From positions 1,088,001-1,152,000 of the forward strand of contig CBDAON010000004.1 of NCBI GenBank assembly GCA_965198065.1: 64,000 bases of DNA, given 5' to 3'. The position numbers were made by a program, and so were the translations under genes. Under the pieces are notes generated by a model, which ran no database searches, was not told the DNA's origin, and saw only the letters and a program-made list of their open reading frames with translations. This DNA is from Longimicrobiales bacterium. GTDB taxonomy: Bacteria; Gemmatimonadota; Gemmatimonadetes; Longimicrobiales; Gaopeijiaceae. This document shows positions 29,598 to 40,404 of the stretch, one piece after another. The stretch's first letter is position 1, and each line of letters opens with the position of its first letter.

Positions 29598-30827
29598 TCA
29601 GTACCTCGGAATGGTGGGATCCACCTCACTCTGCCAGGCGCGGATACCGCCCTTCAGGTTCCAGACCTTGCGGAAGCCCGCGTCCTGGAGCCTCTTCAGC
29701 GCCTCCGCGCTCCTGGACCCCGCCTGGCAGTGGAGGACGATTTCCTCCGCGGAATCCAGCTCGGGCATCCGCTCGAGCAGGTTGTCCAGGGGGATCAGCT
29801 CGGCTCCGTACGCCCCTAGGTTCACGATTTCCCACTCGTGCGGCTCACGCACGTCCACGATCCGGAGACGGTCGCCCCGCTCGAGTCGGGCGTGGAGCTC
29901 CTTCGCGGTGACCGTGGGAACGTCCGACTGATCCTCCGCGGCTCCCTCCTCGTAGCCCGGGACACCGCAGAACTCGAGGTAGTCGATGAGCTCGGTGACG
30001 GTCGGGTTCTCGCCGCACACCGGGCACTCTGGGTTCTTGCGGAGCTTCAACGTCCGCCACTCCAGAGTGAGCGCGTCGAAGAGGAGGAGCCGCCCAATCA
30101 GGGGCTCCCCGCGGCCGATGATGAGCTTGATCGTCTCGAGCGCCTGCATGGCTCCGATGATGCCGGGGAGCACGCCGAGCACCCCGCCCTCGGCGCAGCT
30201 CGGCACCATCCCGGGGGGCGGCGGCTCTCGAAAAAGGCACCGGTAGCACGGGCCGTGGCGGGCGTCGAAGACGGACACCTGGCCCTCGAAGCGGAAGATG
30301 GAGCCGTACACGTTCGGCTTGCCCAGGAGAACGCACGCGTCGTTCGTGAGGTAACGCGTCGGGAAGTTGTCCGTCCCGTCCACGACCACGTCGTACGGGC
30401 GGATCACGTCCAGCGCGTTCTCGCTCGTCAGGCGGATTTCGTGAGGCACGACCTCGACGTGCGGGTTCACGTCCTTCAGGCGCTCGGCGGCGGACTCGAT
30501 CTTCGGGCGCCCGACGTCTTTCGTGCCATGGAGGAGCTGTCGCTGGAGGTTCGTCCGGTCCACGACATCGAAGTCCACGATGCCGACCCTTCCGATCCCG
30601 GCCGCCGCCAGGTACAGCCCTAAAGGGGACCCCAGCCCCCCGGCTCCGATCATGAGGACGCTCGCGTTCTTCAACCGGCGCTGCCCGGCCATCCCGACCT
30701 CAGGCATGATGAGGTGCCGGGAGTATCGCTCGATCTCCTCGTTCGACAGGTGGGGAAGCTCCCCCGCAGGAACGGTCCAAGGGGGGAAGCCCACTGGGCC
30801 GGTCGAGTTGCCGCTGGGCTTGCTCAT
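29598..30827 (-). CDS. moeB: MoeZ/MoeBR sulfur-carrier adenylyltransferase with C-terminal rhodanese domain
   Basis: RYSRH, GAGGLG, NLQRQ, DGTDNF, CYRC, CAEGGVLG, CPVC; rhodanese DVREPHE...HCQAGSRS. Confidence 0.93.
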   Translation of the reverse strand: MSKPSGNSTGPVGFPPWTVPAGELPHLSNEEIERYSRHLIMPEVGMAGQRRLKNASVLMIGAGGLGSPLGLYLAAAGIGRVGIVDFDVVDRTNLQRQLLHGTKDVGRPKIESAAERLKDVNPHVEVVPHEIRLTSENALDVIRPYDVVVDGTDNFPTRYLTNDACVLLGKPNVYGSIFRFEGQVSVFDARHGPCYRCLFREPPPPGMVPSCAEGGVLGVLPGIIGAMQALETIKLIIGRGEPLIGRLLLFDALTLEWRTLKLRKNPECPVCGENPTVTELIDYLEFCGVPGYEEGAAEDQSDVPTVTAKELHARLERGDRLRIVDVREPHEWEIVNLGAYGAELIPLDNLLERMPELDSAEEIVLHCQAGSRSAEALKRLQDAGFRKVWNLKGGIRAWQSEVDPTIPRY

Positions 30828-30904: not shown

Positions 30905-31543
30905 TCAGGCCGCCAGATGCTGGTGGATGTCGCGCGCGGCCTCGATCCGGACCTCGAGGGCAAGCCGGTCTCGGGGGTCGTTCGCGACCCGGGAGACCTG
31001 GACAGGGAGCCCTCCATAGACTGCGGTCACGGCCTCGCGGGCCACGTCCCTCAGGGCCTCGAATCCCGCGTCCGTGTTGGGCGCCCGGAGCCGGTCGTTC
31101 GACTCGATCCGCAGCAGGGAGGCGTCGAAGTCGAGCTTCCCCTGCACGCGCGGGTCGGTCTCAAGAAGCGCCGCCACGCGGAGCGCTTGCTTCAGGGTCG
31201 AGGCGATCGCTTCCGTTGCGTCACCCTCGAGCGGCACCCGTCGCTGGGCGAGGAGGCCGGACCGCCCGTCCGCGCAATCCAGGGCAAAGCTCACCTCCTG
31301 GGAGATCAGCATGATCCCCGGGCTGTCGGGCGCGTGCGCGTAGTCGGCCACATCCAGGAGGACCAGGTCCAGCGCCCCGTCCCGGATCCACTCGTGGAAG
31401 ATCGGGACGAACACCTCCACGTCGTCCTCAATCTCGGGGGGAGCGGACGTGTAGAGCTTCACGCAGATGCGATAGAGGCCCTCCAGGCCGGCCGATCCCA
31501 CGCTGCCCGCGGTCGCGCCCGCTCCGCCGCCGCCTCCGCTCAC
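30905..31543 (-). CDS. Hypothetical protein translationally coupled to sulfite reductase
   Basis: GTG overlaps sir stop; FVPIFHEWIR...LLDVADYAH...PGIMLI. Confidence 0.75.
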   Translation of the reverse strand: MSGGGGGAGATAGSVGSAGLEGLYRICVKLYTSAPPEIEDDVEVFVPIFHEWIRDGALDLVLLDVADYAHAPDSPGIMLISQEVSFALDCADGRSGLLAQRRVPLEGDATEAIASTLKQALRVAALLETDPRVQGKLDFDASLLRIESNDRLRAPNTDAGFEALRDVAREAVTAVYGGLPVQVSRVANDPRDRLALEVRIEAARDIHQHLAA

Positions 31544-33882
31544 AACGGAAACCCCACGCCCAATCCGTTTCCGCCCGTCCCCGCGGCCTGCGCCTCGAGG
31601 AGGCGGCTGTAACACCCGTGCGCCGCCTCGACGAAGAGCTGCGCTTCCTCAACCCGGCGATGGGCTTCGTCCCCGTCCCGGACCCGGCCCCCGGCCTCGT
31701 GCACGCTCTGGAGGTACCCCCACTCCTTCGCGCCCACGAAACGCTCGAAGAACAGCTCCGTATCGATGAACTTCATCTTGAACTCGGGGAACACGAGCGC
31801 AGGATCGCCCTTCTGATCCGGGTTCTCGGCCTTGAGGAGACCCTGGGCCGCGAGGATCATCGCCTGGTAGGCGAGCTGACCGGCTTCGTCGAAGCGCGCC
31901 GGTCCCGCTCTTTCGTCGTCCAGGAGCACCGACGCGTCGAACGCCTTGGACTCCGCGTTCGCAAGGCTGAATTGGGTGAGCGTCACGACCTCCCCAGCGC
32001 ACTCGCCCACGCCGATGTCCCCGATCGAGTACTCGCGCGCGTCGTGCCAGTCGACGTAGAAGGTCGGATCGGTCTCGTAGGCCGGCACGGCGAGGAGATC
32101 CCCGAGCCTCCCCTTGATCTCCTTCTTCCCCACCCGCACGACCCACGAGCGGAACGTCTCGTCCGACTCACGCTCGGTCGTGTAAAGGTCGAGGAGCCGA
32201 TCCACCGTCTCCGGGATCCGCTTGGACGGAACGGCACCCATGGCCAGCCCGTAGCTCCCCGCGTTCTCCTCGAGCGATCCGCCGAGAAGCAGCTGGAAGT
32301 GGGGCACCTTGTAGGCGCCCACGTTCCGGCTCGAGCCGTAGAAGCCGATGTCGGCGATGTGATGCATCCCGCACGAGTTCGGGCACCCGCTCACCTTGAT
32401 GTGCACGTCCTTGAGGACCGGATCCAAATGGAGCTCTCGCTCGTGCAGGCGCTCCCTGAGCTCGGCGCCAAGCCCGCGCGAGCTGGCGATCCCGAGCTTG
32501 CAGGTGTCCGTGCCCGGGCATGCGGTCACGTCGGTGATCGTCGCCGCGCCCGTAGACACGAGCTTCGCCTCGTGGAGCTCGTTGTAGATAGCGACCAAGT
32601 CCTTCTCGTGGATCCAGCGGAGGAAGAAGTTCTGGTCCACGTTCGTGCGGAGCGCGCCGGGAGCGTACTTCCGGACGAGGTCCGCGAGCCTGCGCGTCTG
32701 ACGGGACGTGATGTCGCCCAGGGGAAGGTTGATCGTGACCGCCACGGACCCCTCTTGGCGCTGCCGGTAGACGTTCGTCTTCGACCACTCCTCGAACCCG
32801 TCCGCCGGCACGGTCGACTCGTCGGTGACCGGCTCCGAGCGCCCCTCGATCTGGGGCAGGCGCGCCTCCTCGAGCCAGGCGTCCCAGCGCGGATCGGGCT
32901 CAAGCGCAGACAGCTCCTCCTCCACCACGCACTTGAACTCGTCGATCCCGAGCTTGGCCACGAGGAACTTGATCCGGGCCTTGTTCCGGTTCCGCTTCTC
33001 GCCCAGCCGGGCGAAGACGCGGGCGATCGCCTGTGAGAGCGGGAGCATCTGGGCTTCCGGCATAAACTCGTAGAGCACCTTGGCCACGTGCGGGACGGGC
33101 CCAAGCCCACCGCCCACCACCACCGTGAAGCCCCGCTCCTCCACGCCGTCCACCTCCCGGGTCGCCGCGACGAACCCGAGGTCATGCATCATGACGCGGG
33201 AGCAGCCCTCATGTCCGCATCCGGAGTATGCGATCTTGAACTTCCGCCCGAAGTCCTGGACGTCCGGATGACCGAGGAGGAAGGAGGCCTCGGCCTTCGC
33301 GTAGGGAGAGATGTCGAAGCGCTCGTCCGTGCAGATCCCCGCCTTGGGGCAACCGGTGACGTTCCGGACCGAGTTCCCGCACGCCTCCCGTGTCGTGATC
33401 CCAACAGCGGCCAGGCGCCGGTGCAGATCCGGCGTGTCCTCGATATCGACGAAGTGCAGCTGGACATCCTGTCGGGTCGTGATGTGGAGGACCGCGTTCG
33501 AGTACTCCTCCGCGCAGTCCGCGAGGACCTCGAGCTGCTCGGCCGTGACCTGCCCGTACGGGATCTTGATCCGCTGCATTCCCGGCGCGTCCCATTCGGT
33601 CTCGGGCCCCTTCGTAAGCCCGAGGCGCCGGAAGGGGAGCTCCTGGGTCTTGGTCCCATCGTAGCGCTGACCGTTGTCGTAGCGCTGGCCGTAGGCGCCC
33701 CGCCGGAGGCGAAGCTCGGCGAAGACCTTGTCCTCGATCTTTCCCTGTTTCCGGAGCTCCATCTGCGCCTCGTAGGAGTCGATCTCCTCCGTCACGTGGG
33801 GAGGAATGCTATCCGCGAGCCGCACCTTCCAGCTCCACTGCCCCGGACTAGTCGCGCCGGTGTTCGTCTCGCCTGGGCTCAT
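31540..33882 (-). CDS. sir: Ferredoxin-type sulfite (nitrite/sulfite) reductase, siroheme/[4Fe-4S]
   Basis: HITTRQ, CGNSVRN, RKFKIA, CPGTDTC and SGCPNSCG ligands; downstream of cysH. Confidence 0.9.
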   Translation of the reverse strand: MSPGETNTGATSPGQWSWKVRLADSIPPHVTEEIDSYEAQMELRKQGKIEDKVFAELRLRRGAYGQRYDNGQRYDGTKTQELPFRRLGLTKGPETEWDAPGMQRIKIPYGQVTAEQLEVLADCAEEYSNAVLHITTRQDVQLHFVDIEDTPDLHRRLAAVGITTREACGNSVRNVTGCPKAGICTDERFDISPYAKAEASFLLGHPDVQDFGRKFKIAYSGCGHEGCSRVMMHDLGFVAATREVDGVEERGFTVVVGGGLGPVPHVAKVLYEFMPEAQMLPLSQAIARVFARLGEKRNRNKARIKFLVAKLGIDEFKCVVEEELSALEPDPRWDAWLEEARLPQIEGRSEPVTDESTVPADGFEEWSKTNVYRQRQEGSVAVTINLPLGDITSRQTRRLADLVRKYAPGALRTNVDQNFFLRWIHEKDLVAIYNELHEAKLVSTGAATITDVTACPGTDTCKLGIASSRGLGAELRERLHERELHLDPVLKDVHIKVSGCPNSCGMHHIADIGFYGSSRNVGAYKVPHFQLLLGGSLEENAGSYGLAMGAVPSKRIPETVDRLLDLYTTERESDETFRSWVVRVGKKEIKGRLGDLLAVPAYETDPTFYVDWHDAREYSIGDIGVGECAGEVVTLTQFSLANAESKAFDASVLLDDERAGPARFDEAGQLAYQAMILAAQGLLKAENPDQKGDPALVFPEFKMKFIDTELFFERFVGAKEWGYLQSVHEAGGRVRDGDEAHRRVEEAQLFVEAAHGCYSRLLEAQAAGTGGNGLGVGFPL

Positions 33883-33946
33883 CGTTTGCCGTCCTGACTC
33901 GTCCCGCCGATTCACGTCGAGGTACGGGCTGGGTACCGTACCCTCG

Positions 33947-34732
33947 TCACAAGTTATGGAGCCCGCACTCTGTCCGGGTGCCCCCGCGCCACCGCCCCGC
34001 CCGCTCGTGCTCCCCCGGGAGCGTGGGCGTCGTGAGGGGCTCGTCCCCGATGCTCGCGTAGCCCTCGTCGTGGAGGGGATGATAGAGCACCCGGTTCACC
34101 ATGATGAACTCCCACACTTGGTCCAGGGTCCAGAGCGCGAGAGGGTTCACTTTCGTGCGGCCATTCTTCTCGACGATCGGAATCCCGGCTCGCGACTCCG
34201 ATTGGTCCCGTCGCCGGCCGCTGATCCACCCCTCGAAGCCGTCCAGCGCCCTCCGCATCGGCTCGACCTTCGTGAGCTGGTGGAACAGCTCCTCGTCCCG
34301 TTCCCAGAGGCGCTCCCCGTGCTGGGCCTCTAACGCCTCCCTCGACTTGGCGGCGGGGAACGTGCGGAGGTCGATCCCGTAGTGCTCGCGCACCCGCTCC
34401 GCATGCTCGAGGGTCTCCGGGAAGTGGTAGAGCGTATCCACGAAAAGCACGGGAGTGCGAATCCCCTCCTCCGCCAGCATGTGGATGAGGATCATCCCGC
34501 TGGGACCGAACGTGGACGACATCGCGACCCGGCCCTCGGGGAAGGCGGATGCGGCCCAGCGGAGCACCTCCCTCGGATCGGCTCCCTCGAAGTGGCGGCT
34601 GAGATCCGCGGCTTCCTCGGCGGTGAGAGAAGCCGATACGAACGGAGCCGGCGCCACCACCGGGTCCACCGCCCTGCCGTCCGCAGAGATGCCCATCGTC
34701 TCGACTCCGGCCCCCAGAATGTCCTCTCTCAC
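33947..34732 (-). CDS. cysH: Phosphoadenylyl-sulfate (PAPS/APS) reductase lacking Fe-S cysteines
   Basis: FVDTLYHFPET, KVEP, GRRRDQ, KVNPL, GYASIGD, RAGRW, ECGLH. Confidence 0.92.
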   Translation of the reverse strand: MREDILGAGVETMGISADGRAVDPVVAPAPFVSASLTAEEAADLSRHFEGADPREVLRWAASAFPEGRVAMSSTFGPSGMILIHMLAEEGIRTPVLFVDTLYHFPETLEHAERVREHYGIDLRTFPAAKSREALEAQHGERLWERDEELFHQLTKVEPMRRALDGFEGWISGRRRDQSESRAGIPIVEKNGRTKVNPLALWTLDQVWEFIMVNRVLYHPLHDEGYASIGDEPLTTPTLPGEHERAGRWRGGTRTECGLHNL

Positions 34733-34846
34733 CGCCGCCTCGTCCTTCCAAGCTCCGTTCGCCAGACCTTCGTCCGCCCCCAGCTGCCGCTCCTGTCCAC
34801 CGGCACCGGTCCGCGCTCCACCTTCCGTCCTAGTCCCGCCCCGGCC

Positions 34847-34880
34847 AAATCAAAAGCCCCGACCTCTTGGAGGTCGGGGC
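34847..34880 (-). terminator. Intrinsic terminator (attenuator) between leader ORF and cysH
   Basis: GCCCCGACCTC-CAA-GAGGTCGGGGC-TTTTGATTT. Confidence 0.85.
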
Positions 34881-34905
34881 CGAAGTCCTCTGCGCGATCG
34901 GGCGG

Positions 34906-34989
34906 CTACGCGAAGTGTCTCCGGGACCCACCCCCAGCGGGGGAGGCCGGACAAGAACACATCGCGCAACACATCGCGGTCATAGCCAT
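34906..34989 (-). CDS. Met/Cys-rich leader peptide MAMTAMCCAMCSCPASPAGGGSRRHFA (27 aa)
   Basis: 4 Met + 4 Cys in the first 13 codons; lies between promoter and terminator upstream of cysH. Confidence 0.8.
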   Translation of the reverse strand: MAMTAMCCAMCSCPASPAGGGSRRHFA

Positions 34990-34998
34990 AGCGAGAAG

Positions 34999-35027
34999 AC
35001 TTTAGGCCGAAGGGCGGGGGACGTCAA
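34999..35027 (-). promoter_or_regulatory. sigma70 promoter of the leader-cysH operon
   Basis: TTGACG-N17-TAAAGT; -10 ends 9 nt before the leader ATG. Confidence 0.8.
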
Positions 35028-36700
35028 GGCCCTCCGGAGCCTTCCGGAGCCCCGTGGCCGACCTTCCCCGTCCCCGTCCGCCGGCTCCCGCGGGCAGCTT
35101 CGAGCTCGGTCCTGGCCATGGACATGAACACGGAGCACGGCTCCGGGCAGGGGATCTGGCCCCCGGGACCTGCCTTCTCGCCCGCGGGGTCACCGCCCGC
35201 CCAAGTGGGACGGCGGAGGCACCGCCCCGGGGCACAGCACCGGGAAACGACCCGCTCCACCCCCTTCTCGTCGAGCTCCGCGACGCCCGCATAGATCCCG
35301 GTCTGGCGAGGCGCCGCCCGGGCAAACGGGGTGAGCGCGAGCCGGCCCCGTAGGGCCAGGTGCCGGTGGACGAGCGCGGTCGGGTAGAGATGCGCGTAGG
35401 CCTCCCAGACCTGGTCGGGCGAGAGGTCGGTGAGGCGCCACCCACCGGCCAGGTCCGGCGCGGTCTTGAGTGGCCGATGGACTCCGTTCCCTGAGCGGGC
35501 CGCGACCTCGAGCGCGTCCTCCGGATCGAGGAGTTGCCGGAGCTCGGCCCCGTCCCGACCGCGGTCGTCCACGTGCCGGATTTCGTAACGCCGCTCGTGG
35601 GCGGGGGTCGCCCCGGCACCCCCCGGCTGCGGTGCGAGCGGACGGACTACCGCCTGGAGCACGTCCCACCCATCGGGACCCGCTTCCCCAAGCCAGGCGG
35701 CGAAGGCCTCCCTCGCCTCGCGAACGTCGGAGGGCGTGGGCGGCGACCGGCCTCCGGGACTCTTCTCGTCAGTCTCCCGGCCGGGCGTCCGATCGTCGGG
35801 CCCATCGGTGCGTCCCTCCCCTCCTTCCTCCTCCCGAACGATCCGGTGGACGAGGTCGACCAGCGACGGATGCGTGCCCACCGGCTGCGCGTACCAGATC
35901 GTCGCGCCGCCCCTCTCCGTCCGACCTCCCGAGATGGCCAGCGTCGCCGGAACGGTCGAGCCCGCGTGCCATCCCTCTGACATGAAGAAGGGGACGAGGA
36001 TCACGTTCCCGTCCGCGAGCTGGGGAAGGAGCTGCTCGACGCGGGGATCTTGGTCCAGGAACGCCGCGAGCACGCGGCGGTAGGGGCCACGCGCGCGGAT
36101 GCGCTCGACGACAGCAAGAGTCGTGTCTCCCGAGCGGGAATGGGCGTCCGTCCCGTGCCCGATCACGACGAGCGTCGCGCCGGCCTCGTCCCCCGCATCG
36201 AGCGGGGCCACCTCTCTGGCCCGCTCGCGTACGATCGCCTCCATGTGCGGATGCGCGCCCACCGGCGGACAGAGGCGGAGGACCCGGCCGGAGCGGCGGG
36301 TCACCCGTCCCGCGAGGCCGAGCTCTCGGGGGACGACCGTCTCCGTGAAGTAACCAGTGCTCGTAAACAGGGGAACGACGAGCACCTCGCGACTCTCGAC
36401 CAGGTCGAGCGCGGTGTGGAGGTGCGGGTCCTCCTTCCAGAACCCCACCCGGACCTCGGCGAACGCACGGTCCTCCCTCAGCCGGCAGGCCAGGAGGTGG
36501 ACGGGACGGGCGGAGTCCGAGCTGTGGTGGGAGCCGTGCCCCACGAGAAGCACTCCCGCGGCCGACCCACCGCCCCCGGACGGGCTCCGGCCGGCCCACT
36601 CGGGGCCCTGACTCCCGCCTTCCCGCGTCCTTGACAAGGTTCGAACGCCTCCCCTACGTAAGGCTCCAGCGCCGGAGGCGCGCCGCTCCGAAGGTTCCAC
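35024..36700 (-). CDS. CbiX/SirB-type chelatase fused to a Cys-containing DR2241-like C-terminal domain
   Basis: LLVGHGS, FWKEDP, VPLF...GYF, IGHGT, PFF..GWH; C-terminal RPLKTAPDL, CC...C, PCPEPC. Confidence 0.82.
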   Translation of the reverse strand: MEPSERRASGAGALRRGGVRTLSRTREGGSQGPEWAGRSPSGGGGSAAGVLLVGHGSHHSSDSARPVHLLACRLREDRAFAEVRVGFWKEDPHLHTALDLVESREVLVVPLFTSTGYFTETVVPRELGLAGRVTRRSGRVLRLCPPVGAHPHMEAIVRERAREVAPLDAGDEAGATLVVIGHGTDAHSRSGDTTLAVVERIRARGPYRRVLAAFLDQDPRVEQLLPQLADGNVILVPFFMSEGWHAGSTVPATLAISGGRTERGGATIWYAQPVGTHPSLVDLVHRIVREEEGGEGRTDGPDDRTPGRETDEKSPGGRSPPTPSDVREAREAFAAWLGEAGPDGWDVLQAVVRPLAPQPGGAGATPAHERRYEIRHVDDRGRDGAELRQLLDPEDALEVAARSGNGVHRPLKTAPDLAGGWRLTDLSPDQVWEAYAHLYPTALVHRHLALRGRLALTPFARAAPRQTGIYAGVAELDEKGVERVVSRCCAPGRCLRRPTWAGGDPAGEKAGPGGQIPCPEPCSVFMSMARTELEAARGSRRTGTGKVGHGAPEGSGGP

Positions 36701-36898
36701 GCGCGCGGCCCCGGAGTCGCGCGAGCGCCATCCGCCTCAACCTAACGAAGCCCTTCCGCGACGCCGAAGGAACCGGAGGGCGGGCGAGTACCGGCGATGA
36801 CCCGACGAGCCCCCGACCGCTCTCCAGGCCGGGGGCTCGCGCCCTTTCGGGCGGGAAGCGTCGCCAGGGCGTGGAGGGGAACGCCAGAAGGTGGACCG

Positions 36899-37726
36899 AT
36901 GACCCGAAAGCGACCGGGAACCGTATACCTCGTCGGGGCCGGCCCCGGCGACCCGGATCTTCTCACCCGAAAGGGCGCGCGGCTCCTGGCCGTGGCGGGT
37001 GCGGTCGTGCACGACGCCCTCATTGACTCCAGGCTTTTTACGGAGGTCGCGCCCGGCGCCGAGCTGTACGACGTGGGGCGGCGAGCGGGGACGAAGCGAC
37101 TGGACCAACCCCAAGTGAACGAGCTCCTGATCAAGCTCGCGGGGGTCCATGAGATCGTGGTTCGACTGAAGGGGGGAGACCCGTTTGTCTTCGGTCGTGG
37201 GGGAGAGGAGGCAATCGCGCTCAAGGCCGCCGGCATACCGTTCGAGGTGGTTCCTGGAGTCACGTCAGGGGGTGCGGTCCCCGCGTACGCGGGGATCCCC
37301 CTGACCCACCGGGGAGTGGCCTCGTCGGTGACGTTCCTCACCGGGCACCAAGTCACGTCTGCCCCGGAGGGGGCGGAAGCCTCGAGCCCCATCACCCGGG
37401 AGGGGACGCTCGTGATCTTCATGGGCCTCCTCAGGGTCGAGGAGATCGCGCGGGGACTGATCGAGCGAGGTCTATCGCCGGACACGCCGACGGCGGTGAT
37501 CCAGTCGGGGACCTACGCGTCCCAGCGGACCGTCACGGGAGTGCTGGCGGACATCGGGGAGCGGGCGCGGGCGGGTCGCATTTCGCGCCCCGCGCTCATC
37601 GTGGTCGGGGACGTCGTGGCGCTTCGCGAGGGGATCCGCTGGTTCCCCGAGGCGGGAGTCGAAACAGCGACCGGCAAAGGCCCCCCCGAGCGGGGAGTGG
37701 CTCAGGGCGCGGACAAAGCGAAGTGA
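36899..37726 (+). CDS. cobA: Uroporphyrinogen-III C-methyltransferase (siroheme synthesis)
   Basis: VYLVGAGPGDPDLLT, RLKGGDPFVFGRGGEE, PGVTS, GIPLTHR. Confidence 0.93.
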   Translation: MTRKRPGTVYLVGAGPGDPDLLTRKGARLLAVAGAVVHDALIDSRLFTEVAPGAELYDVGRRAGTKRLDQPQVNELLIKLAGVHEIVVRLKGGDPFVFGRGGEEAIALKAAGIPFEVVPGVTSGGAVPAYAGIPLTHRGVASSVTFLTGHQVTSAPEGAEASSPITREGTLVIFMGLLRVEEIARGLIERGLSPDTPTAVIQSGTYASQRTVTGVLADIGERARAGRISRPALIVVGDVVALREGIRWFPEAGVETATGKGPPERGVAQGADKAK

Positions 37727-37947
37727 GTGTAGTTCTTCTCGATGTAGGCCGTCCACTCCGGGGGCACGTCGGTATCCGGAAAGATCGCCTGAACCGGGCA
37801 CTCGGGCTCGCAGGCCCCGCAGTCGATGCACTCTTCGGGCTGGATGTAGTACTGGTCGTCCGCGTCGTAAATGCAGTCCACGGGGCAGACGTCCACGCAG
37901 CTCGCGTCCTTCGTGCCGATGCAGGGCTCGGCGATGATGTAGGTCAT
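37702..37947 (-). CDS. Ferredoxin (7Fe/8Fe FdxA type)
   Basis: MTYIIAEPC...CVDVCPVDC...CIDCGACEPECP. Confidence 0.93.
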   Translation of the reverse strand: MTYIIAEPCIGTKDASCVDVCPVDCIYDADDQYYIQPEECIDCGACEPECPVQAIFPDTDVPPEWTAYIEKNYTHFALSAP

Positions 37948-38471
37948 AGACCGTCGGCTGAGGTAGTTCTTGCGCTTGAGTACCTCTCCTCCCCCCGACT
38001 CCGTTCTGCCGGAAGCTCCGACACGGGGACCCGCAGGGGCGACCCGGGCGCCGCCGGATTCCAGCGCCACGCCCCCATGGCCGCCCAGTCGTCCGAGGCG
38101 TCCTCCCCCACGATGAGCCAAAGCACTTCGGGCCACAGCTCCATGTATCCCCGATCGATCGAGGACGGAACCGGCCGCCCCACCGGGTGGGAGTGGTAGA
38201 ATCCCACGATCTCGTGCCCCGTTCCCCGGAGCGAGCGTTCCTCCTCGATCACCCGTCGAGGATCGATCGTGAACCGCGTTCGCCTTCGACCCGCCGGAGC
38301 CTCGTTGGGGCACGGGATCGCGCGCGTGACCCAGATGTCCCCGTCCTGGATCCGCCCCACCAAGAGCCCACACGCCTCGTCGGGAGACGCCCGTCTCGCG
38401 TCCTCCACCACGGTCCGCGAGACGTCCGGGGAGAGGTAGGCGCCCTCGGTCCACCCCTCCCCACCGCTCAC
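37944..38471 (-). CDS. JAMM/MPN+ (Mec-like, M67) metalloprotease
   Basis: EACGLL...GFYHSHP...PSSID JAMM motif. Confidence 0.9.
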   Translation of the reverse strand: MSGGEGWTEGAYLSPDVSRTVVEDARRASPDEACGLLVGRIQDGDIWVTRAIPCPNEAPAGRRRTRFTIDPRRVIEEERSLRGTGHEIVGFYHSHPVGRPVPSSIDRGYMELWPEVLWLIVGEDASDDWAAMGAWRWNPAAPGSPLRVPVSELPAERSRGEERYSSARTTSADGL

Positions 38472-38758
38472 CAGTCGGGCCCCACACCCCCCGCGATGGA
38501 GGGAACGATGGATACCTCGTCGCCTTCCTTCACGGGCGTGTCCAGATCCTTCTCGTAACGGACGTCGGTGCCGTTCACGAACACGTTCAGGAACTGTCGC
38601 ACCTCGCCCTGCTCTCCGAGGATCCGGCCGAGGAGATCGGGGTGCGTACTCCCGAGGTCGTCGAACAGCTCCCGCACGGTAGCCCCTTCCGCCTGGAGCT
38701 CCGCCTGTCCGTTCGTGAGCTTACGAAGCGCGCTCGGCACTCGGACGGTAACGCTCAT
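38468..38758 (-). CDS. CysO/MoaD-like ubiquitin-fold sulfur carrier with C-terminal extension after GG
   Basis: VRVPSALR...LNVFVNG..VR....LDT.V..GDEVSIVPSIAGG-VGPDW. Confidence 0.92.
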   Translation of the reverse strand: MSVTVRVPSALRKLTNGQAELQAEGATVRELFDDLGSTHPDLLGRILGEQGEVRQFLNVFVNGTDVRYEKDLDTPVKEGDEVSIVPSIAGGVGPDW

Positions 38759-40032
38759 CCCTCTACCTCCTCGCTCGCGGCCAGTCGCTCCACCTCGGCG
38801 AGCCTCGGCTGGATGGGATCCTCCAGCCGGAACGTGCCGCGCGCGGCATCCGGAGTCTTGAGCCCGTTCCCCGTGATGCAGAGAACGGTGGGTCCGTCAC
38901 GCCGGAGCCGACCGTCCCGGACCAGGCGCGCCGCAGCGGAAACCGTAACGCCTCCGGCCGTTTCCGTGAAGACGCCATCCAAGGTCGCCAGCAGGCCGAT
39001 CCCGTCAACGATCTCCGGGTCGGACACCGCCTCCCCCCAGCCTCCGGTCTCCTGGATCGTCTCCACCGCAAACAGACCGTCCGCCGGATTTCCGATCGCG
39101 AGCGAGCGTGCGATGGTGTTGGGTTTCTGAATCGGCCGCACCTGCCGCTCTCCGGCCTGCACCGCGTTCACGATGGGTGCGCAGCCCGACGCCTGTGCGC
39201 CGAACATCCGGGGCTCCGGACCCTCCTCGACGAGGCCGGTCTTCATGAGCTCGCGGAAGCTCTTCCGAACCTTCGTGATGAGCGACCCGCCCGCCATGGG
39301 GACGACGACGTTCGCGGGCAGCGTCCAGCCGAGCTGCTCGGCGATCTCGTACCCCATGGACTTCGAGCCCTCGCTGTAGTAGGCCCTGAGATTGACGTTC
39401 ACGATTCCCCATCCGAACCGGTCCGCCACCTCCGCACAAAGCCGATTCACATCGTCGTACACCCCCCGTACGCGGACCACCCTCGCCCCGTGCACGCCCG
39501 TCGCAACGATCTTTTCCACCTCCAGGTCCTCGGGAATGAAGATCCAGGCGCGGAGGCCCGCGGTCGCGGCCTGTGCGGCCACCGCGTTCGCTAGGTTGCC
39601 TGTCGACGCGCATCCGACCACGTCCATGCCGAACTCCCCCGCACGTTGGAGAGCGACCGCAACGACTCGGTCCTTGAACGACTGCGTCGGATGGTTCGAC
39701 GAGTCTACCTTGATCCAGAGATCATCGATGCCCAGCGCGGCTCCCAGCCTCGGAGCTCGGAGGAGCGGCGTCCACCCGACCCCGAGCCCGCGGGTCGGCT
39801 CCTCGGCAACGGGCAGGAGCTCGCGGTACCGCCACAGGTCGGTAGGTCGCGATGCGATCCTCTCCCGCGTGAGCCGACCGCGGAGCCGCTCAAGATCGTA
39901 GACGACCTCTAGAGGACCAAAGCACTCCTCGCAGACGTGATGCGGGCCGGCTTCCGTCTCCGTCCCACAAATTCGACATCGAAGCGTGCTCAGCGCCGCG
40001 GGGGCGAGGGGTGCCAAGTTCGTCTCGCTCAT
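38755..40032 (-). CDS. Threonine-synthase-like PLP enzyme (fold type II) with N-terminal Zn ribbon
   Basis: CRIC...CEEC, PTQSFKDR, ASTGNLA, EGSKS, PMAGGSL, ITGNGLK; start ATG 40032. Confidence 0.88.
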   Translation of the reverse strand: MSETNLAPLAPAALSTLRCRICGTETEAGPHHVCEECFGPLEVVYDLERLRGRLTRERIASRPTDLWRYRELLPVAEEPTRGLGVGWTPLLRAPRLGAALGIDDLWIKVDSSNHPTQSFKDRVVAVALQRAGEFGMDVVGCASTGNLANAVAAQAATAGLRAWIFIPEDLEVEKIVATGVHGARVVRVRGVYDDVNRLCAEVADRFGWGIVNVNLRAYYSEGSKSMGYEIAEQLGWTLPANVVVPMAGGSLITKVRKSFRELMKTGLVEEGPEPRMFGAQASGCAPIVNAVQAGERQVRPIQKPNTIARSLAIGNPADGLFAVETIQETGGWGEAVSDPEIVDGIGLLATLDGVFTETAGGVTVSAAARLVRDGRLRRDGPTVLCITGNGLKTPDAARGTFRLEDPIQPRLAEVERLAASEEVEG

Positions 40033-40150
40033 CGCCTCTATCGTCTCCTGCGCGGTCTGGCCCAAGGGCGGCCCACCCGCGCCGTGTCCACCGCCCGGAG
40101 GCGCCGAAAGATCGCGAGAAACGCGTTCCCGGCAACCCGCCGGCCTCCTT

Positions 40151-40197
40151 AGAAAAAGGAAAGAGCCCCGACCTCTCTGGAAGAAGGCCGGGGCTCT
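40151..40197 (-). terminator. Intrinsic terminator (attenuator) between leader ORF and thrC-like gene
   Basis: AGAGCCCCGGCCT-TCTTCCAGAG-AGGTCGGGGCTCT-TTCCTTTTTCT. Confidence 0.85.
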
Positions 40198-40220
40198 CTC
40201 GCTCCGTCGGGTCCGCTTGC

Positions 40221-40328
40221 CTAGCGCCTGGCGCCTCCGGACACGACCGTCCCCGATGCGCCTTCCTCCATGGAGGAAGCCGACATCGAACAACGGCACA
40301 TGCACATGTAGCCGCGAGCGACCCGCAT
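40221..40328 (-). CDS. Met/Cys-rich leader peptide MRVARGYMCMCRCSMSASSMEEGASGTVVSGGARR (35 aa)
   Basis: MCMCRCSM cluster; AGGAG RBS 10 nt upstream; lies between promoter and terminator. Confidence 0.8.
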   Translation of the reverse strand: MRVARGYMCMCRCSMSASSMEEGASGTVVSGGARR

Positions 40329-40375
40329 TATCGTCCGACTCCTCTGCTTCGGATGAGCGGCCCCGACGAGCGCAA

Positions 40376-40404
40376 ACGGTACCGAAGCAGGCCAGAGGCG
40401 TCAA
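40376..40404 (-). promoter_or_regulatory. sigma70 promoter of the leader-thrC-like operon
   Basis: TTGACG-N17-TACCGT. Confidence 0.75.

Follow-up and report, generated by a model that had tools for sequence, protein, structure and literature searches.

Two methionine- and cysteine-codon leaders ahead of sulfur operons in a Longimicrobiales bacterium: probable transcription attenuators on a shared scaffold

The question raised by this locus is how sulfur genes are controlled in a cluster that encodes no CysB-, CymR- or MetJ-type regulator. The stretch of DNA analysed, referred to here as the window, comprises 64,000 nucleotides (nt) from a Longimicrobiales bacterium of the phylum Gemmatimonadota (C4:1088001-1152000); the assembly is of 3.05 Mb and is 88% complete. 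Two short open reading frames (ORFs) rich in methionine (Met) and cysteine (Cys) codons lie on the minus strand, leader 1 ahead of cysH and leader 2 ahead of a gene for a ThrC-like enzyme. The initial annotation of this DNA, which had noted the lack of such regulators in the cluster, proposed that the two leaders form one family defining a sulfur regulon free of transcription factors. The leaders are real and conserved, and most likely they are two attenuators of the classical type that read Met and Cys.

Architecture and conservation of the leaders

Each leader has a promoter-like box, followed by a short ORF rich in Met and Cys codons and by an intrinsic terminator. In leader 1, the promoter-like site (TTGACG-17-TAAAGT, 34999..35027, minus strand) overlaps the stop codon of cbiX with its -35 box. 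The distance from the -10 box to the ATG is 9 nt, and a congener has the same layout with 8 nt (L032); leader ORF 1 would be nearly leaderless. This ORF (34906..34989, minus strand, 27 codons) carries Met at codons 1, 3, 6 and 10 and Cys at codons 7, 8, 11 and 13, the cluster being formed by the three internal Met and four Cys of codons 3-13. Its G-rich tail, ending in CCGGAG, is the predicted 5′ strand of an antiterminator (34919..34936, minus strand, from a fold with the 5′ part masked). Intrinsic terminator 1, located by a terminator scan (34845..34881, minus strand), has a 12-bp stem followed by a U-rich tail, and compensatory A-U to G-C changes are present in 3 of 10 homologs.

In leader 2, the promoter-like site (TTGACG-17-TACCGT, 40376..40404, minus strand) has identical boxes in four related leaders (L040, L041, L068 and L069). 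There are 47 nt between the -10 box and the ATG, and most homologs likewise have long 5′ untranslated regions (UTRs). A Shine–Dalgarno-like AGAGGAG can be read upstream of the ORF (40339..40345, minus strand). Leader ORF 2 (40221..40328, minus strand, 35 codons) carries Met at codons 1, 8, 10, 15 and 20 and Cys at codons 9, 11 and 13, with the four internal Met and three Cys clustered in codons 8-20. The same scan places intrinsic terminator 2 at 40150..40200 (minus strand), with a 17-pair stem and a U-rich tail.

The details that first drew attention to the pair are all in the sequence. The -35 box and spacing agree (TTGACG-17 nt-TAnnnT at 35027-34999 and 40404-40376, minus strand), Met/Cys clusters are present in both, CCGGAG stands at 34924-34919 and at 40240-40235, and both ORFs stop at TAG. 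The 12-mer GAGGTCGGGGCT occurs at 34866-34855 and 40175-40164, its sole two exact copies in the 3.05 Mb assembly.

The hairpins by themselves are not beyond chance: a terminator scan over 13 kb returned 4 sites, against 4.0 in shuffles. The fold z-scores of the two leaders are -4.1 and -5.5. A scan of the genome gave 412 terminator-like sites, 13 of which have an upstream short ORF holding some amino-acid cluster. A Met/Cys-cluster ORF lies just upstream of three of the 412, and two of these three are leaders 1 and 2, the only intact sulfur leaders found in the genome. Rfam, including the S-adenosylmethionine (SAM) riboswitches and T-boxes, matched nothing in the window at gathering score, and nothing at E up to 1 on the loci containing both leaders. 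The third Met/Cys ORF with a terminator (C4:1740357, before a dicarboxylate-type symporter) was set aside, as its TTGACA box overlaps the ORF stop and neither of the two family models described below matches it. At C4:1740500-1740590 (plus strand, L240), a TTGACA box, a short AT-rich stretch and a strong terminator precede this symporter locus by approximately 250 nt; this element, which has no Rfam match, is possibly a small RNA or riboswitch.

The leaders are conserved in relatives. The cysH gene was matched at 65 places in the searched genomes and 35 of these were examined as loci; a Met/Cys-rich ORF followed by a terminator lies upstream of cysH in 27, four of which have two leaders in tandem (L162-L165). 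These four carry two different Cys leaders in series, with an extra U-tailed hairpin between them in three. Among the eight loci without a leader, one is cut by a contig end, two have a Cys leader further upstream at the operon head (L247, L248), one has no leader within 20 kb (L249) and four were not traced further upstream.

The ThrC-like gene was examined at 115 loci, 14 of which passed the ORF rule. The locus L140 was skipped, since its gene is cut at a contig end. Three of the 14 were dropped before counting, namely a SAM-II locus (L047) and two Verrucomicrobia loci (L073, L079). In these two Verrucomicrobia assemblies, Met/Cys-rich ORFs with terminators precede the region of the ThrC-like gene (L079:5763-5901 and L073:5567-5705). 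Among the 14 ThrC-like loci at 65% identity or above, 10 have a leader, two are operon-internal and two have a leader that still aligns but keeps few control codons (L070, L071). Met-only versions of the leader also occur (L004, L041). Where gene order differs, the leaders travel with the operon head, and across Gemmatimonadota Met/Cys leaders are also found upstream of cysG, cysJ, cobA, moeZ, metY and the MetM-like gene. Met/Cys leaders have further been seen upstream of TonB-dependent receptors (L200, L204, L208), which may import organosulfur compounds.

The predicted ribosome-controlled switch

Both leaders are likely, with good confidence, to be ribosome-stalling transcription attenuators of the trpL/hisL kind that read Met and Cys. 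Their translation, the stalling and the regulation are what we infer from the following features. The stop column of the ORF is kept as TAG or TAA, and gaps within the ORF are of 3 or 12 nt and remain in frame. Among Cys codons, TGT makes up 186 of 299 in the leaders against 9 of 67 in 14 ORFs of the window, with a single tRNA-Cys(GCA). The Met share of the control codons is 0.67 in 17 leaders before methionine-route genes and 0.17 in 42 leaders before sulfate-reduction or siroheme genes, a comparison in which kin are not independent. The held stop, the in-frame gaps, the TGT use and the Met share are taken as signs of selection on coding. The leader peptides have no conservation outside Met and Cys, which agrees with the earlier remark that the two peptides are otherwise dissimilar.

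When the charging of Cys- or Met-tRNA is scarce, a ribosome would stall on the Met/Cys cluster and leave the G-rich tail of the ORF free. The tail would then capture the 5′ arm of the terminator, and transcription would proceed into the sulfur genes. With both charged tRNAs in good supply, the ribosome would run through to the stop codon and cover the tail, and the terminator would form. Since the pair in the window is near-balanced (three Met and four Cys in one, four Met and three Cys in the other), both leaders would respond to either amino acid.

To compute the alternative pairing, the ribosome was represented by a mask and the RNA was truncated ahead of the 3′ arm of the terminator. In this model, the G-rich tail pairs with the terminator 5′ arm as long as the A site is at the cluster, and it releases the arm a few codons later. 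The predicted antiterminator strand of leader 1 (34936-34919) has 89% of its cells paired in 10 sequences. In 58 of 65 leaders, the cluster ends 14-21 codons ahead of the stop codon; the median spacer to the hairpin is 26 nt. Predicted sequestration of the terminator arm is 0.77 with the ribosome on the cluster against 0.35 with the ribosome at the stop, and it is higher at the cluster in 64 of 65. In a cross-pairing test, each tail was set against each arm, with one leader taken from each of 24 sequence clusters; L228, which meets a contig end, was left out of this test and of the duplex-versus-shuffle test. A tail pairs with its own arm 4.0 kcal/mol better than with swapped arms (-4.0; null 0 ± 0.74; 24 clusters).

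A number of results weigh against such a switch. A shuffled tail still gives a sequestration of 0.67 and the real tail is better in only 49 of 65, so that G-richness explains much of the sequestration. When the two leaders of the window are taken by themselves, their antiterminator duplexes do no better than shuffles (z -0.7 and -1.1). Antiterminator covariation is absent in 10 close homologs, where 191 of 500 shuffles score as high, and the protector pairing falls short of significance (p about 0.07). At equilibrium the terminators of both window leaders form wherever the ribosome stands (about 1.0 and 0.88), and the switch must therefore be kinetic. Two alignable homologs have nearly lost the cluster, with two control codons in 10 (L070, L071). 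The sole RNA run consists of low-depth contigs and is silent on starts, ends and levels.

The weak specificity of the antiterminator in the two leaders of the window would also suit other routes, in which Cys and Met are sensed by nascent-peptide arrest, Rho-dependent termination or translational control like that of mycobacteria, and the hairpin is a fixed, leaky terminator. The Cys residues could, in addition, report the redox state. However, both terminators stop more than 100 nt short of the next start codons and cannot cover a ribosome binding site, the peptides are not conserved except for Met and Cys, and the cross-pairing test favours specific tail-arm pairing at the level of the family. 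These routes are thus improbable, though the best placed of the alternatives to attenuation by ribosome stalling.

A scaffold shared between amino-acid operons

The relationship of the leaders was examined with two models, R1 from 10 cysH-type leaders and R2 from 12 leaders of the ThrC-like gene. When searched against the genome, R1 returns leader 2 as the best full-length match besides leader 1 (19.4 bits, E 0.006), and R2 finds leader 1 (27.3 bits, E 3e-4). This bears out the proposal that the two belong to one family. Their last 45 nt account for most of the likeness (z 7.2; remainder, z 2.3). In other genomes, R2 has matches in 36 of 151 from the family and 8 of 151 from the class. Fifty-two of its matches were examined, and 26 have at least four Met/Cys in 10 codons. 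The suggested link to sulfur genes is seen in 20 of these 26, which lie upstream of cysG (10), MetM-like genes (4), cysJ (2), metY (2), cobA (1) and moeZ (1). The other six precede TonB-dependent receptors (3), a protein without a Pfam match (1) or a contig end (2).

A generic dispersed repeat, the finding that was to overturn the original proposal, does not describe these elements. There are only two exact 12-mers, matches of the models in the genome at E up to 1 are few (5 for R1 and 3 for R2), and matches are tied to sulfur genes. Among 27 strand-hits of the motif, a U-rich tail is present only at the two leaders.

The same terminator type stands behind leaders of other amino acids. In relatives, matches outside sulfur metabolism include Thr-rich ORFs before aspartate kinase (six), as well as an Arg-rich one ahead of argC and a Leu-rich one ahead of leuA. 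The genome itself has a Thr-rich leader with this terminator type (C4:2472686-2472866, minus strand, L241), followed by aspartate kinase and homoserine kinase, and its last 45 nt resemble those of both window leaders (z 5.3 for leader 1, 2.9 for leader 2). Some aspartate kinase leaders of relatives carry Met, Ile or Cys codons as well (L211, L219, L226). A terminator accompanies both the Arg-rich leader before argC (L217) and the Leu-rich leader before leuA (L223); arginine leaders of this type are, to our knowledge, unusual. Among 64 distinct related leaders, the 12-mer is found in 3, CCGGAG in 13 and a TAG stop in 36, and the promoter pattern TTGACG-17 nt-TAnnnT occurs 13 times in the genome. 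The details stressed at the outset are therefore not a sulfur signature. A sulfur-specific RNA family is not supported, as the scaffold is also found on the aspartate kinase, argC and leuA leaders, and neither is the claim that the family defines sulfur control. The scaffold represents an attenuator design found across the clade, which has likely passed from one amino-acid operon to another by copying and been retuned through changes of its control codons.

The cross-detection of the leaders by R1 and R2 counts in favour of a sulfur-specific RNA family that defines the whole of a transcription-factor-free sulfur regulon. Neither Rrf2 (the CymR type) nor MetJ was found in the 88% complete genome, no CysB-like regulator was found, and its sole LysR protein is encoded upstream of glutamate synthase. 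Against such a regulon, the terminator type is common to the Thr, Arg and Leu leaders, and no Met/Cys ORF lies in the 4 kb upstream of the cysD/cysNC, cysK, CBS-like, cystathionine lyase-like and metH genes. The incompleteness of the genome also tells against it. Furthermore, a SahR-type factor is encoded directly upstream of ahcY (C4:360998-361973, minus strand, L307). This protein is an ArsR-methyltransferase fusion, which we take to be the domain architecture of SahR. The core regulon of SahR, in the available text of its description, comprises sahR, ahcY, metH, metF and metK (PMC4239095). The promoter of the fusion gene contains a 22-nt palindrome that is unique in the genome at up to one mismatch. 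No match to the SahR-type palindrome within three mismatches was found in the window, including both leader promoters, which speaks in favour of the factor-free reading. In its strong form, the proposal of a factor-free regulon is already contradicted, and it is less probable than the other sensing routes weighed above. The term regulon thus stands for two operons and is overstated beyond them, and freedom from transcription factors stands, as far as tested, at these two promoters. What can fairly be stated is a pair of operons under attenuation, at whose promoters no regulator is evident, and not a factor-free sulfur regulon.

Models of the SAM-I and SAM-II riboswitches gave no match in the genome, with the SAM-II control also silent everywhere. 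At C4:1952486-1952580 (plus strand, L261), a SAM-II-like core discerned by eye, a hairpin and a U tract precede metH; Rfam gives this stretch no score.

The sulfur cluster and its place among known systems

The first minus-strand part of the cluster begins with leader 2. It is followed by the ThrC-like enzyme (38755..40032, PF00291, NF006050), which is dependent on pyridoxal 5′-phosphate, a ThiS/MoaD sulfur carrier resembling MetO and CysO (38468..38758, PF02597), a Mec-like JAB protease (37944..38471, PF14464) and a ferredoxin (37702..37950, PF00037). Between the two minus-strand parts, cobA/sumT encodes the uroporphyrinogen-III methyltransferase of siroheme synthesis on the plus strand (36899..37726, PF00590, TIGR01469). 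The second minus-strand part starts with cbiX, a chelatase gene of the DR2241 type (35024..36700, PF01903, PF18069) with its 3′ end at the leader 1 promoter. Leader 1 then precedes cysH, which encodes an adenosine phosphosulfate/phosphoadenosine phosphosulfate reductase (33947..34732, PF01507, NF002537). Next come a ferredoxin-type sulfite/nitrite reductase hemoprotein (31540..33915, PF01077, PF03460), a hypothetical protein of 236 amino acids without a Pfam or NCBIfam match (30905..31615) and moeZ, for a MoeZ/MoeB-type ThiF-rhodanese enzyme activating sulfur carriers (29598..30827, PF00899 and PF00581). The cluster region has also been seen in independent DNA sequencing samples.

A third hairpin of the same terminator type lies before cobA (36807..36838, plus strand), with neither a U tract nor a Met/Cys ORF. 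It is likely to be a decayed leader. Two relatives (G001, G622) keep a U tract at this site and have no Met/Cys ORF. Among 19 matched relatives, cobA has full Met/Cys leaders in three (L291-L293) and two-Cys versions in two (L296, L298). The conserved non-coding stretch before cobA (36625-36850, plus strand) is 73% identical in the congener and includes a promoter box. A DNA search with this leader over 201 genomes returned only the congener, the remaining matches being short and at chance level, and Rfam found nothing near gathering score on the cobA and metH leaders.

The ThrC-like enzyme behind leader 2 is labelled threonine synthase by hidden Markov models, and its nearest named relatives are from Gemmatimonadota assemblies (76-77% identity). 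It is a putative MetM-type homocysteine synthase, on the strength of its gene context, of a separate ThrC in the genome with 30% identity to it, and of an exchange with SAM-II. Most of the more distant Gemmatimonadota orthologs have SAM-II (RF00521, SAM_alpha), which was found at 19 of 34 scanned ThrC-like loci against none of 6 cysH loci. In these orthologs it occupies the same place at the MetM-like operon as leader 2, and at three loci SAM-II is followed in tandem by a Met/Cys leader (L005, L006, L059). Swaps between leader peptides and riboswitches are a known theme, according to the available text of PMC2965389. The exchange with SAM-II, together with the codon bias of leader 2, supports the view that many genes of this phylum annotated as threonine synthase encode homocysteine synthases. 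The Streptomyces methionine route is given in the available part of one source as MetM/MetO/Mec/MoeZ (PMC13759103, Table 2). The same four gene types occur in the cluster, a likeness in gene set.

Another reading takes the leaders for small RNAs, or for small peptides that bind metals, each with a terminator of its own, while the operons use promoters further downstream. It would suit the complete promoter-ORF-terminator layout of each leader and the general ability of Cys clusters to bind metals, but is very improbable given that codon content tracks the downstream pathway, that Met-only versions exist, that SAM-II takes the same place in orthologs and that the leaders follow the operon head when gene order changes.

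With attenuation as the preferred reading of the two leaders, a wider picture can be put forward at roughly even odds. A portable Gemmatimonadota scaffold, copied between amino-acid operons with control codons swapped between Cys, Met, mixed, Thr, Arg and Leu, would serve sulfur assimilation as a ribosome-based sensor with two inputs that can be tuned. This sensor would take the place of SAM-II or stack on it, double in tandem in some species and decay in others, and present-day genomes would display all of these states. If true, the scaffold would extend to attenuation that senses Cys and Met and has an intrinsic terminator, of which no experimental description was found. The literature search, made largely without subscription papers, found nothing on attenuators in Gemmatimonadota and no Met/Cys transcription attenuator with an intrinsic terminator. 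Attenuation for cysteine mediated by an upstream ORF was termed previously undescribed in the available text of a mycobacterial paper of 2020 (bioRxiv 10.1101/834739). Dozens of natural Cys, Met and mixed attenuators, with SAM-II swaps and tandem and decayed copies, bring both the mechanism and the evolution of attenuator specificity within reach of simple reporters.

Several known systems invite comparison. In Campylobacter jejuni, the available text on MetL proposes that an ORF with Met codons controls termination before methionine genes (PMC3847290), and its translation start is reported in the accessible part of a later study (bioRxiv 10.1101/2022.11.09.515450). Both MetL and the present leaders are leader ORFs with Met codons that are proposed to act on termination; as far as its description goes, MetL uses Met only and its antitermination is proposed. 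SAM-II senses SAM directly, whereas the leaders would sense charged tRNA, and SAM-II is at neither leader of the window.

The polycysteine leaderless small ORFs of mycobacteria are described, in the text available, as acting by translational attenuation through a covered ribosome binding site, with no conserved terminator (bioRxiv 10.1101/834739), and were earlier predicted, without terminators in the part seen (PMC1262725). They share with the present leaders the runs of Cys codons in a short ORF before sulfur genes, and leader 1 would also be nearly leaderless. The present leaders, in contrast, have a conserved terminator and Met codons interspersed with the Cys codons, and there is a 5′ UTR in leader 2. 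Membership in the mycobacterial family was ruled out by this conserved terminator, placed more than 100 nt from the start codons. Among leader attenuators, thrL is a multivalent one.

The classical leader-peptide transcription attenuators, in the available account, are trpL of E. coli and hisL of Salmonella (bioRxiv 10.1101/834739). The present pair differs in that its control codons are Cys and Met together, in its phylum, in having no Rfam match and in being known from sequence alone. It resembles trpL and hisL in its short ORF rich in the codons of the end products, in the terminator placed before the first gene and in the antiterminator predicted from the tail of the ORF.

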